Sequence record: MK373774.1
Source of the DNA: Escherichia phage vB_EcoM_WFL6982
DNA: 64,000 bases
Reading direction: 5' to 3' (one strand)
Shown: in pieces, positions 9,234 to 12,116 of the stretch
Position numbering within the stretch: position 1 is the stretch's first letter
Layout of the letters: each line of letters opens with the position of its first letter
Notes under the pieces: generated by a model
The model's input: the letters and a program-made list of their open reading frames with translations, nothing else
Told to the model about the DNA's origin: nothing
Database searches by the model: none
Made by a program: the position numbers and the translations under genes

Positions 9234-10232
9234 TTATGATACTAATTCAATCCATGCAGGACGCAGAACATCTTGCACCATTCGGACTAATTCTTTCTTA
9301 ACAAGATTCGGATTATCAGATGATGTTAATACAATACCTTCACGAGAAGTTTCTTCCAGAATATCTTGAACAGTCAATCCCATCACTTTGCCAAAAGATT
9401 TTGGCGTTACAGCCCCAATCTTAGAAATAACATTATTAACACGATTTAATGTAACATAACAAGCTAGAACATCAAGCAAGTTTTTGTCAATTTCGGTTAA
9501 TGGAACCTGAGTTTTAATAGGCTTATCAGACTTTTTCTTTTCACTGAATTTAGAGTTCTTGCACTTAATAGCTACACGAGTACCGTTTGGCAGCCATTTA
9601 GGGAAACAAGGCTTCAGAACATAACCTTCTGCCGTATTATCGCCAATAACATTAGCATCAAATACACAATTATTTGCTTCGACAAGGTCTTCTGACGCAG
9701 TAGCATTATAAGCGGCTAAGACGGAATCAAGGTCATTTGGAATCATGATAAGAGAATCAAATGTTCCACGACCAAGCATTGGTGCCATTTTAAAACCGAA
9801 TTCATTACAGAAATCTTGCATTTCGTAATCGGTCAAATACGTATTATCACCACTTTCTGTATTGATAAGGATATCGAACACATAAAAATCTTTTTCACCG
9901 TAGTCAACACCTTTCTGGATTCCACCACCAGCAAATTCACCGAATACTTGATATGATACGGCTCGAGCTGTGTACATGAATTCCTGAACGGCTTTAATAG
10001 CTTTATCATACTTCTTGAGTACGATTTCATAACCATAAAAATCTTCTGCTGGAAGAATAGGGCCTGTGCGCTTGGCGCATGTGACGTTGCCACGTTCAAT
10101 TATTAACGAGAAGTTGGTCCCATGGATTTTCTCACGTGCTACCCAAACACCAGTAGTCAAACCATTAGTGTAGAGTTTTTCAATAAACTTAGAGTTGTAG
10201 TGGTTTTCAAGACTGCTGTATTTCTTAAACAT
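9234..10232 (-). CDS. rnlB: RNA ligase 2 (Rnl2)
   Basis: 332 aa; nucleotidyltransferase lysine motif KIHGTN near N-terminus; T4 synteny. Confidence 0.9.
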
Positions 10233-10800: not shown

Positions 10801-10875
10801 TCCCGTATTATTTGGTTTGTGCCATTATATACATCAATCTCAAGATGTGTTTTGTATGCTTTAAAAACGAAGAAA

Positions 10876-10889
10876 GGGGCCGAAGCCCC
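10876..10889 (-). terminator. Hairpin ggggc-cgaa-gcccc after hoc
   Basis: Stem-loop followed by T-run on minus strand. Confidence 0.55.
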
Positions 10890-10893
10890 TTGA

Positions 10894-11388
10894 TTATGGA
10901 TATGTATAGATGATACCAGTTTCCAAAGCAGTTTTATGGATGATGTATCCATTACGTGATTCTTGAACATCAACTTCTGGATAGTCTTTCATCATCTTCT
11001 GAAGCGTATAACGATGCAAGTAATACTTACTATCTGGATCTTCAGTTTTCCAATCTTTACCTTCTTCAGTCATTTTTTGGATTTCATCCATAACCCACCA
11101 ACCGCACCAGATGTAAGCTGAAGTACGATGTGGAAGAGGATGAACATAAGGTAATTCACCTTCTGGAACTGTATTTGTTGCAACTACTTTAATAGTCTTT
11201 TGACCGGCAGGTCCTTTTAGTACATAACTAAAAGTTGCTTCAGCTCCATCTTGCGGAACATCATCTACAGACCAAGCATATGTAATAGTTCCACCTCCAG
11301 TTTCACCACCGGGAGTAGCAGTAAACTGCTTAGTCTCATCTATAACTCCAGTAGGTGTTTTAGGAGTTATATCAACTGTAAAAGCCAT
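10894..11388 (-). CDS. hoc: Hoc-like outer capsid protein, short form (one Ig-like domain + capsid-binding domain)
   Basis: 164 aa; N-terminus MAFTVDITPKTPTGVIDETKQFTATP and C-terminus YIWCGWWVMDEIQKMTEEGKDW...IIYTYP match T4 Hoc termini as recalled. Confidence 0.8.
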   Translation of the reverse strand: MAFTVDITPKTPTGVIDETKQFTATPGGETGGGTITYAWSVDDVPQDGAEATFSYVLKGPAGQKTIKVVATNTVPEGELPYVHPLPHRTSAYIWCGWWVMDEIQKMTEEGKDWKTEDPDSKYYLHRYTLQKMMKDYPEVDVQESRNGYIIHKTALETGIIYTYP

Positions 11389-11397
11389 AAGTTATCC

Positions 11398-12066
11398 TTA
11401 TTTTAATGTTACGAAAGAAGAATTACGAGTTTCACGAATTAGAACTGATCCATCGCGATTAATATAATAAATTAAGCTAAATAATGTTTGGTGAGCAGAA
11501 GCGTGCACAAAACTGGTTGGGCGAGATTTCCAATCTGGGGTTTCGGCTATCCATTGATAAATCCACCAAGGAACAGTAACATATCCTGGGCCTTTGCCTA
11601 ATTTAATGAGTGTAGGACTAAAATTTTCAGGCAGAACAAATTTTACTTCTTTATTTACCTCTGGATCAGGCTCTTTTTCAGATTCAACAACCTGAGTAAT
11701 TGCTTCTTCGAATTTATCATGGTCGAATTCTTTTTCTTGTTCGACAACTTCTAATACTTCAACTTGTTCTGTTGGAGAATCAAACAACAGAATAGCTTCT
11801 TCTTTAACTTCTTCGTTGGTGAAATTAACACCGTCCACATCATCTGCGGCAGTAATTAAATCGGTGATAGATAATCCATCGGTTTCAGGTAATGGTTCAT
11901 CAGCCAGTGCGTTAAGAGCTTCTTCGATATCAATAACAATATTATCGAATGATTTTGTTTTCTTAACACTAATGCCAAATTGTTTCGCATATTCGAACAG
12001 TTTAGCTTTGGCTTCCTTTTTATCAGAAAGAGCACGTAACTCTTCAATATAGTCTTTATCGATCAT
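11398..12066 (-). CDS. inh: Inhibitor of prohead protease Inh
   Basis: 222 aa; position after hoc as in T4. Confidence 0.75.
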   Translation of the reverse strand: MIDKDYIEELRALSDKKEAKAKLFEYAKQFGISVKKTKSFDNIVIDIEEALNALADEPLPETDGLSITDLITAADDVDGVNFTNEEVKEEAILLFDSPTEQVEVLEVVEQEKEFDHDKFEEAITQVVESEKEPDPEVNKEVKFVLPENFSPTLIKLGKGPGYVTVPWWIYQWIAETPDWKSRPTSFVHASAHQTLFSLIYYINRDGSVLIRETRNSSFVTLK

Positions 12067-12079
12067 GGTATTTCCTCAT

Positions 12080-12087
12080 TATAAATA
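12080..12087 (+). promoter_or_regulatory. Late promoter TATAAATA (uvsW)
   Basis: Exact TATAAATA 30 nt upstream of uvsW. Confidence 0.55.
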
Positions 12088-12116
12088 TAACTATATTTAT
12101 TACATGGTAATTTGAC

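Follow-up and report, generated by a model that had tools for sequence, protein, structure and literature searches.

The decoration protein Hoc of phage T4, of which each expanded gp23* hexamer carries a single copy, is 376 aa long, in agreement with the figure of about 376 aa that an earlier note on this DNA had given. The tandem Ig domains of Hoc proteins are arranged linearly, as seen in the RB49 crystal structure and the T4 model, and the C-terminal domain, which folds autonomously into an alpha/beta structure around a hydrophobic core of its own, docks in the central groove of expanded gp23* hexamers and binds expanded capsids only (PMC10385173). Hoc is dispensable for growth and its effect on capsid stability is marginal; the number of Ig domains varies from 1 to 10, and one-Ig Hocs, such as the short Hoc of Enterobacter phage PG7 (233 aa), have been published (PMC10385173). 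Residue D246, located in domain 3 of T4 Hoc, adapts under mucus selection (PMC9271167). Outside the family, T5 pb10 may be likened to the Hoc described here by architecture; pb10 is also a two-module decoration protein, made of a capsid-binding domain and one Ig-like domain, that binds at the hexamer centre, but its domain order and anchor fold differ and its Ig domain is complete (PMC5292684). In this report, we describe a hoc gene of a Mosigvirus phage that is an ordinary mutant allele of this well-known protein, and neither a designed 'mini-fibre' nor a new kind of system.

The hoc locus and its expression signals

The window, that is, the whole stretch of 64,000 nucleotides that was analysed, is 100% identical to GenBank MK373775.1 (Escherichia phage vB_EcoM_WFK; Straboviridae, Mosigvirus; from sewage, Germany), and the gene and its product are named after this phage below. 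The following features were located in and around the gene.

10894..11388, minus strand: hoc deletion allele, 164 codons plus TAA stop (open reading frame list, phrog_1149, T4 Hoc match, annotation)
11161..11388, minus strand: remnant of Ig-like domain 1, codons 1-76, with strands A, B, C, E and F and no G strand (AV111 nucleotide match, T4 Hoc amino acid match, AlphaFold2)
10897..11160, minus strand: complete capsid-binding C-terminal domain, codons 77-164, equivalent to T4 Hoc 289-376 (86/88 aa, 16 contact or conserved residues, Foldseek, 0/273 nt mismatches to vB_EQ1)
11160..11166, minus strand: deletion junction with one copy of the direct repeat CCAGAAG, hoc nt 223-229, reading CTTCTGG on the plus strand (alignment to relatives, direct reading)
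11395..11399, minus strand: Shine-Dalgarno-like motif AAGGA, which overlaps the stop codon of inh and precedes the hoc ATG by 6 nt (direct sequence reading)
10874..10891, minus strand: intrinsic-terminator-like hairpin AAGGGGCTTCGGCCCCTT with a T-rich tail, 3 nt past the hoc stop (terminator scan; putative terminator in MK373775.1)

The open reading frame starts with ATG and encodes a product of 18.5 kDa (T4 Hoc, 40 kDa); it corresponds to WFK_00179 in MK373775.1, where it is labelled 'hypothetical protein'. The gene order rnlB, 24.2-like, 24.3-like, hoc, inh, uvsW matches the T4 arrangement, and hoc occupies its conserved genomic position, with inh upstream (Inh matches phrog_1051, E=9.5e-91) and the homologues of 24.3, 24.2 and rnlB downstream, where a DUF2774 protein (24.3-like) and, later, RNA ligase 2 (Pfam RNA_ligase and T4_Rnl2_C) are encoded; uvsW lies on the strand opposite to hoc and inh. 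The location between inh and 24.3 is shared with T4 Hoc (PDB 8T1X/5VF3; Fokine et al. 2023, PMC10385173). The reading frame, ribosome-binding site and terminator are all intact, the hairpin 3' of hoc being GC-rich and followed by a T tract, and the overlap of AAGGA with the inh stop codon implies that hoc may be translated within an inh-hoc unit. Directly upstream of inh-hoc on the minus strand, no exact copy of the T4 late-promoter motif TATAAATA was found, only AATAAATA at ~12090-12098, and the inh-hoc promoter is therefore not obvious from the consensus.

Several further observations concern this neighbourhood. The window contains 18 copies of the motif TATAAATA, where 7.5 would be expected, and one copy (12080-12087, plus strand) is situated upstream of uvsW. 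The inh/uvsW spacer of WFK is 50 nt long (window 12067-12116); neither WFK nor any other Mosigvirus examined has a segE-type homing endonuclease gene in this place, where T4 (L006 4058-4675) and HMD-9 (L003 144-761) carry one. The rnlB gene is an intact 332-aa open reading frame in WFK (window 9234-10232, minus strand), is annotated as two CDS in AV111 (L015 12040-13039) and has a homologue of 286 aa in a phage contig from a Shigella assembly (L009).

A complete capsid-binding domain

The protein was assigned to Hoc by its PHROG match (phrog_1149, 'Hoc-like head decoration', E=1.4e-75) and by a phmmer search against PDB sequences, in which T4 Hoc (5vf3/8t1x) was the sole match (E=2.6e-110). 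In the alignment, query residues 1-77 correspond to T4 Hoc 1-77 and query residues 71-164 to T4 Hoc 283-376 (domain i-E=8.5e-60), and residues 4-75 also weakly echo T4 Hoc Ig domains 2 and 3. Residue by residue, the N-terminal part (1-76) is identical to T4 Hoc 1-76 at 70 of 76 positions and the C-terminal part (77-164) to T4 Hoc 289-376 at 86 of 88, with an offset of 212 residues; the protein includes the block YIWCGWWVMDEIQKMTEEGKDW...IIYTYP. The residues of T4 Hoc that contact gp23* or are conserved (Y293, H295, H299, R300, Y304, W306, W309, W310, D313, Q354, E355-G359 and Y360; list from PMC10385173) are all identical in WFK (16/16, positions 81-148). In addition, the C-terminal half of the AlphaFold2 model superposes on the C-domain of T4 Hoc as bound to the gp23* capsomer (8t1x_X; best Foldseek match, E=7.6e-11, TM(target) 0.74), and homology extends over T4 Hoc 281-376 with only the equivalents of linker residues 281-286 missing. 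These results bear out the earlier note both in calling the 164-aa product a Hoc homologue and in identifying its C-terminal part as the capsid-binding domain. The Pfam Big_2/Ig check that it had proposed gave no such return: a Pfam-A search of the open reading frame found nothing significant (best DUF4384, E=0.042), and this check is therefore uninformative on the WFK Hoc sequence. Because the C-domain is intact, WFK Hoc most likely still decorates the capsid, docking in the middle of gp23* hexamers once the capsid has expanded.

Next to hoc, the C-terminal ~85 aa of Inh, the prohead-protease inhibitor (window 11398-11650, minus strand), resemble the Hoc capsid-binding domain (10897-11160) and may be its remote paralogue. 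The PHROG cross-matches are reciprocal (Hoc against the Inh family, E=0.007; Inh against the Hoc family, E=1e-4), and the motifs of the two domains are collinear (VPWWIYQWIAETPDWK with CGWWVMDEIQKMTEEGKDWK, and IRETRNSSFV with VQESRNGYII); direct comparison gave a BLASTP E-value of 1.1 and a shallow profile-profile (hhalign) E-value of 0.053 at a probability of 1%.

An in-frame deletion between short direct repeats

Mosigvirus relatives encode Hoc proteins of 282 aa (AV111, 2 Ig), 376 aa (G2469 and MRostami-2023e, 3 Ig) and 472 aa (vB_EQ1, 4 Ig), the terminal parts of which are identical or nearly so to WFK at the nucleotide level, and the hoc flanks of close relatives are 97-98% identical to WFK over 1.9 kb. 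Over its first 37 kb, the window aligns collinearly with AV111 (~97.7% identity), and the gap in hoc is the only large one. The span from inh to 24.2 is 1901 nt in WFK; among the 40 closest records listed, it is 2257 nt in AV111 only, ~2540 nt in most and ~2826 nt in about ten (maximum 2828), and hoc is longer than in WFK in all 40.

When hoc was aligned to the relatives from both ends, the left match reached nt 229, with 0/229 mismatches to AV111 hoc, and the right match started at nt 223, with 0/273 mismatches to vB_EQ1 hoc. The 7-bp sequence CCAGAAG occurs once in WFK, within the junction-spanning sequence ...ACAGTTCCAGAAGGTGAATTACC..., and twice in hoc of AV111, G2469, MRostami-2023e and EQ1. 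In these relatives, copy 1 (...ACAGTT CCAGAAG CTGAAGCT...) is located at the end of strand F of Ig domain 1, and copy 2 (...CCGGAA CCAGAAG GTGAATTACC...) is located in the linker preceding GELPYVHPL. The protein junction reads ...GQKTIKVVATNTVPE|GELPYVHPLPHR... (...KVVATNTVPE|GELPYVHPL...), and the tryptic peptide across it is VVATNTVPEGELPYVHPLPHR.

With a repeat at both parental endpoints, one copy kept and collinear flanks, WFK hoc is, judged by its junction, a microhomology-mediated in-frame deletion allele, the parent of which was an ordinary Mosigvirus hoc. Slippage or illegitimate recombination would have joined the CCAGAAG copy in the F-G turn of Ig domain 1 to the copy in the linker before the capsid-binding domain, with a loss of 354, 636 or 924 nt from a 2-, 3- or 4-Ig parent; the frame would be kept in all three cases. 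Deletions between short direct repeats are classical in T4-type phages, as in the rII deletion work, and the WFK allele follows the same pattern, with a short direct repeat at the parental endpoints and one copy left in the product. Compared with these classical deletions, there is nothing notable about the WFK event, which is in frame and in a dispensable structural gene. Since the flanks show no divergence from the relatives and no substitutions followed the deletion, the event must be recent. An identical 164-aa protein is recorded for vB_EcoM_WFL6982 (QBQ76940.1), a phage of 164,279 bp obtained from the same sewage sample, on the same host strain and in the same month as WFK and sequenced separately (174x coverage; WFK, 455x); the allele is therefore older than the split between WFK and WFL6982. 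Junction 23-26-mers had 0 matches in IMG/VR, JGI metagenomes and GTDB genomes, which says little because a parental-sequence control matched just one IMG/VR contig.

The length variants of the relatives have a different make-up. The hoc gene of AV111 (L004 797-1645) is a domain-2/domain-3 hybrid joined at TATDYD, and in vB_EQ1 (L005 795-2213) domain 2 is tandemly duplicated in 288-nt units that are 76% identical; the 3-Ig gene of G2469 lies at L007 798-1928. About 27 of the 40 closest records listed have three Ig domains, about 10 have four and one has two. The AV111 and EQ1 variants arise in register and leave whole domains, whereas the junction in WFK was formed out of register and leaves a domain truncated.

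Ig domain 1 is left incomplete

The WFK cut misses the domain boundary and falls inside Ig domain 1. As a parent-like reference we used the AlphaFold2 model of Hoc from AV111, the closest 2-Ig relative, residues 1-76 of which are the same as in WFK. In that model, domain 1 comprises strands at residues 4-8, 13-15, 19-27, 34-41, 52-56, 62-73 and 80-91, with pLDDT >90. The WFK model has strands at 4-8, 19-27, 34-41, 52-56 and 66-73 and low confidence thereafter, its pLDDT being 81-87 for residues 1-70, 62 for the block 71-80 and 53 for the block 81-90. The A' strand (13-15) is present in the AV111 model but is not predicted in the WFK model; in Ig folds, this short strand normally pairs with the last strand. 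The WFK deletion removes the entire G strand (ETAEASTTITVQ, residues 80-91), in which T89 is at least 90% conserved across 35 two-Ig Hocs, together with every later Ig domain and nearly all of the linker, the KVAPEPE of relatives being reduced to PE, which is shared with the VPE of domain 1. Relative to a complete domain 1 and linker, ETAEASTTITVQN plus KVAPEPE are absent, and WFK Hoc has neither a complete N-terminal Ig-like domain nor a flexible linker from the last Ig domain to the capsid-binding domain. In comparison with T4 Hoc, the equivalents of residues 77-288 are missing, that is, the last strand (G) of domain 1, the whole of domains 2 and 3 with D246, and most of the linker.

In WFK, strand F is now followed by GELPYVHPLP, a segment with three prolines for which no strand is predicted; replacement of the G strand in cis is therefore unlikely. 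A Foldseek search of the WFK model against the PDB returned no Ig/PKD match to the N-terminal part above threshold (best Ig-type E at least 0.04). At E<=0.001, the WFK model had one match (to the C-domain) and the intact 2-Ig relative 727, a comparison that is merely indicative because two domains outscore one. Judging from these models, residues 1-76 probably form a destabilised stub, disordered in part, and not a working Ig module. The Ig remnant could be more stable than this, as AlphaFold2 still draws a five-strand sandwich; AlphaFold2 is insensitive to destabilising truncations.

The linear arrangement of Hoc Ig domains means that the last strand must end at the pole opposite the N-terminus. 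Without the G strand, the chain would exit the Ig remnant at the N-terminal pole, and Ig topology together with the linear domain arrangement suggests that the remnant is tethered upside-down, flush against the C-domain. The BC loop (residues 28-34), which is retained in WFK, is located at that N-terminal pole.

These results divide what the earlier note had said about the fibre. The in-frame internal deletion that it proposed is supported by the absence of T4-equivalent residues 77-288 and by the 7-bp repeat junction. Its equation of the N-terminal ~80 aa with T4 Ig domain 1 holds for the identity over residues 1-76 but not for the domain as a unit, which lacks its G strand. Its description of a protein 'reduced to one Ig-like domain' is not supported, as the junction lies inside domain 1, strand 80-91 is lost and the linker is down to PE.

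Comparison with natural one-Ig Hoc proteins

In addition to PG7, natural one-Ig Hocs are found in Shewanella phage Thanatos-1 (179 aa), Aeromonas phage PS49 (185 aa) and metagenomes (183-198 aa). Like WFK Hoc, they consist of a single N-terminal Ig-type unit followed by the conserved capsid-binding domain. We aligned 17 natural forms of 179-198 aa (Thanatos-1, PS49 and metagenomic forms) with WFK Hoc. All 17 retain the last strand (...ETAExxxxLTV...) and a Pro-rich linker of 6-15 residues, and WFK has a gap of ~20-35 columns precisely across the G strand and linker. Without these two elements, WFK Hoc is ~20 residues shorter than the natural one-Ig Hocs, and it falls outside the natural single-Ig subclass, which has a seven-strand Ig domain, a linker and the C-domain in ~179-233 aa.

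Functional consequences and alternative explanations

We consider it probable, with moderate confidence, that WFK hoc is a very recent deletion allele encoding a capsid-bound stub with a destabilised Ig remnant and a partial loss of the fibre. The remnant, destabilised or floppy, would be held near the capsid in a flipped orientation, with no projecting fibre. Most of the 180-angstrom acidic fibre is gone from WFK Hoc, the net charge at pH 7 being -8, compared with -14 for T4 Hoc and -21 for the Mosigvirus 3-Ig form, and the D246 site is absent. The partial loss of the Hoc fibre would thus concern its reach, its negative charge and most of its glycan-binding surface. As Hoc is dispensable and affects the stability of the capsid only marginally, the phage would tolerate such an allele.

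A more severe outcome would be an effective null, in which the protein misfolds, aggregates or is degraded, or in which the lost linker blocks docking, leaving capsids essentially Hoc-less; we regard this as unlikely, though still to be taken seriously. The missing edge strand leaves the core and the F-strand edge exposed, loss of the linker could sterically hinder C-domain docking, Hoc is dispensable (PMC10385173), and hoc is disrupted elsewhere, as by a frameshift in Bas41 and in several records that annotate it as two CDS. However, the C-domain folds autonomously around its own hydrophobic core (PMC10385173), 86 of its 88 residues are identical to those of T4 with every contact residue in place, and the reading frame, ribosome-binding site and terminator of the gene are undamaged.

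The opposite proposal, that the 76-residue N-terminal part is a usable Ig-like module on a very short stalk, with changed adherence or display geometry and perhaps under selection, appears quite doubtful to us. AlphaFold2 does keep a beta-sandwich-like core with pLDDT 81-87, natural one-Ig Hocs exist (PG7, Thanatos-1, PS49) and two isolates share the allele; moreover, the retained BC-loop region 28-34 would correspond to the aa29-33/T34 region of phiPNJ-6 Hoc, which has been implicated in MUC2/fucose binding (PMC13248984). Against this, the G strand and linker are gone from WFK Hoc yet kept in every natural one-Ig Hoc aligned, the replacement segment GELPYVHPLP is rich in prolines and not predicted as a strand, and the N-terminal part has only sub-threshold Foldseek Ig/PKD matches (the intact 2-Ig relative, 727 matches at E<=0.001). 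The allele is known only in two sibling isolates from one sample and has zero sequence divergence after the deletion, so that nothing shows its maintenance by selection. A functional shortened fibre with altered adherence, as the earlier note had envisaged, is therefore doubtful, because the G strand and linker that natural one-Ig Hocs keep are both lost; the likelier outcome is an intact anchor that bears a defective stub.

It is very improbable, in our estimate, that the remnant is a selected functional form, either with its open sheet edge completed in donor-strand style, the strand coming in cis from the N-terminal end of the capsid-binding domain or in trans from a different protein or from the Hoc of a second virion, or as an escape variant that has lost immunodominant or sensed Ig domains. 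If the donor-strand reading were true, WFK Hoc would act as an adhesin lying close to the capsid or would make particles cluster, and its properties would differ from those of the normal fibre.

Finally, a sequencing or assembly artefact in which repeated Ig-coding units collapsed, the risk that the earlier note had named, is scarcely credible: tandem Ig-coding repeats do exist in hoc, and some relatives' records annotate repeat_regions, but the deletion endpoints do not fall at matching positions of the Ig repeats and share only 7 bp, which is far under the scale of SPAdes k=55 or PacBio reads and cannot collapse the PacBio HGAP or SPAdes k=55 assemblies that were made, with coverage checked, by Korf et al. 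2019 (PMC6563267), within the hoc genes of relatives no long repeat comes near identity (the best reaches 76% over 288 nt, in the 4-Ig gene only), WFK was covered 455x, and WFL6982, a second genome assembled independently, encodes the same protein.

Other disrupted hoc alleles

Singleton internally deleted hoc alleles encoding 130-232 aa occur at the same syntenic position in phage contigs from Shigella/E. coli isolate assemblies and in metagenomes (loci L009 3001-3549, L011 3001-3393 and L012 716-1117; proteins P0019, P0064, P0028, P0022 and P0072). Four of them are, like WFK, out of register: P0019 (182 aa) has a complete domain 1 fused at YVHPL, and P0064, P0028 and P0022 are 130, 133 and 232 aa long. 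The capsid-binding domain is in frame in all of these alleles, which were found via C-domain homology and may therefore carry an ascertainment bias, and several are cut within an Ig domain. The junctions of P0019, P0064 and P0028 have 0-3 bp of microhomology or are ambiguous, because proxy and not true parents were compared. In addition, the hoc gene of Escherichia phage FriedrichZschokke (Bas41, BASEL collection; L008 1501-2627) has a frameshift just before the capsid-binding domain; the annotated CDS stops at 2337, and homology runs on out of frame. Unless this frameshift reflects an error in sequencing, Bas41 may produce a Hoc that cannot attach to the capsid. Together, the deleted and frameshifted alleles fit relaxed constraint on hoc in isolates.

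Significance

The WFK allele appears to be undescribed, and Hoc is not mentioned in Korf et al. 2019 (PMC6563267). It reveals no new mechanism and no new protein architecture maintained by selection, and its practical value is modest. One immediate use is a correction of the annotation from 'hypothetical protein' to 'Hoc, internal deletion allele'. As a natural allele that parts the Hoc anchor from almost all of its fibre, it is a possible control for mucus-adherence (BAM model) and pH-clustering experiments, and it bears on phage-display design with regard to the minimum Hoc needed on the capsid. For the biology of these phages, the WFK allele, the 2-, 3- and 4-Ig variants and the singleton deletions mark hoc as a hotspot of length change in Mosigvirus and Tequatrovirus.
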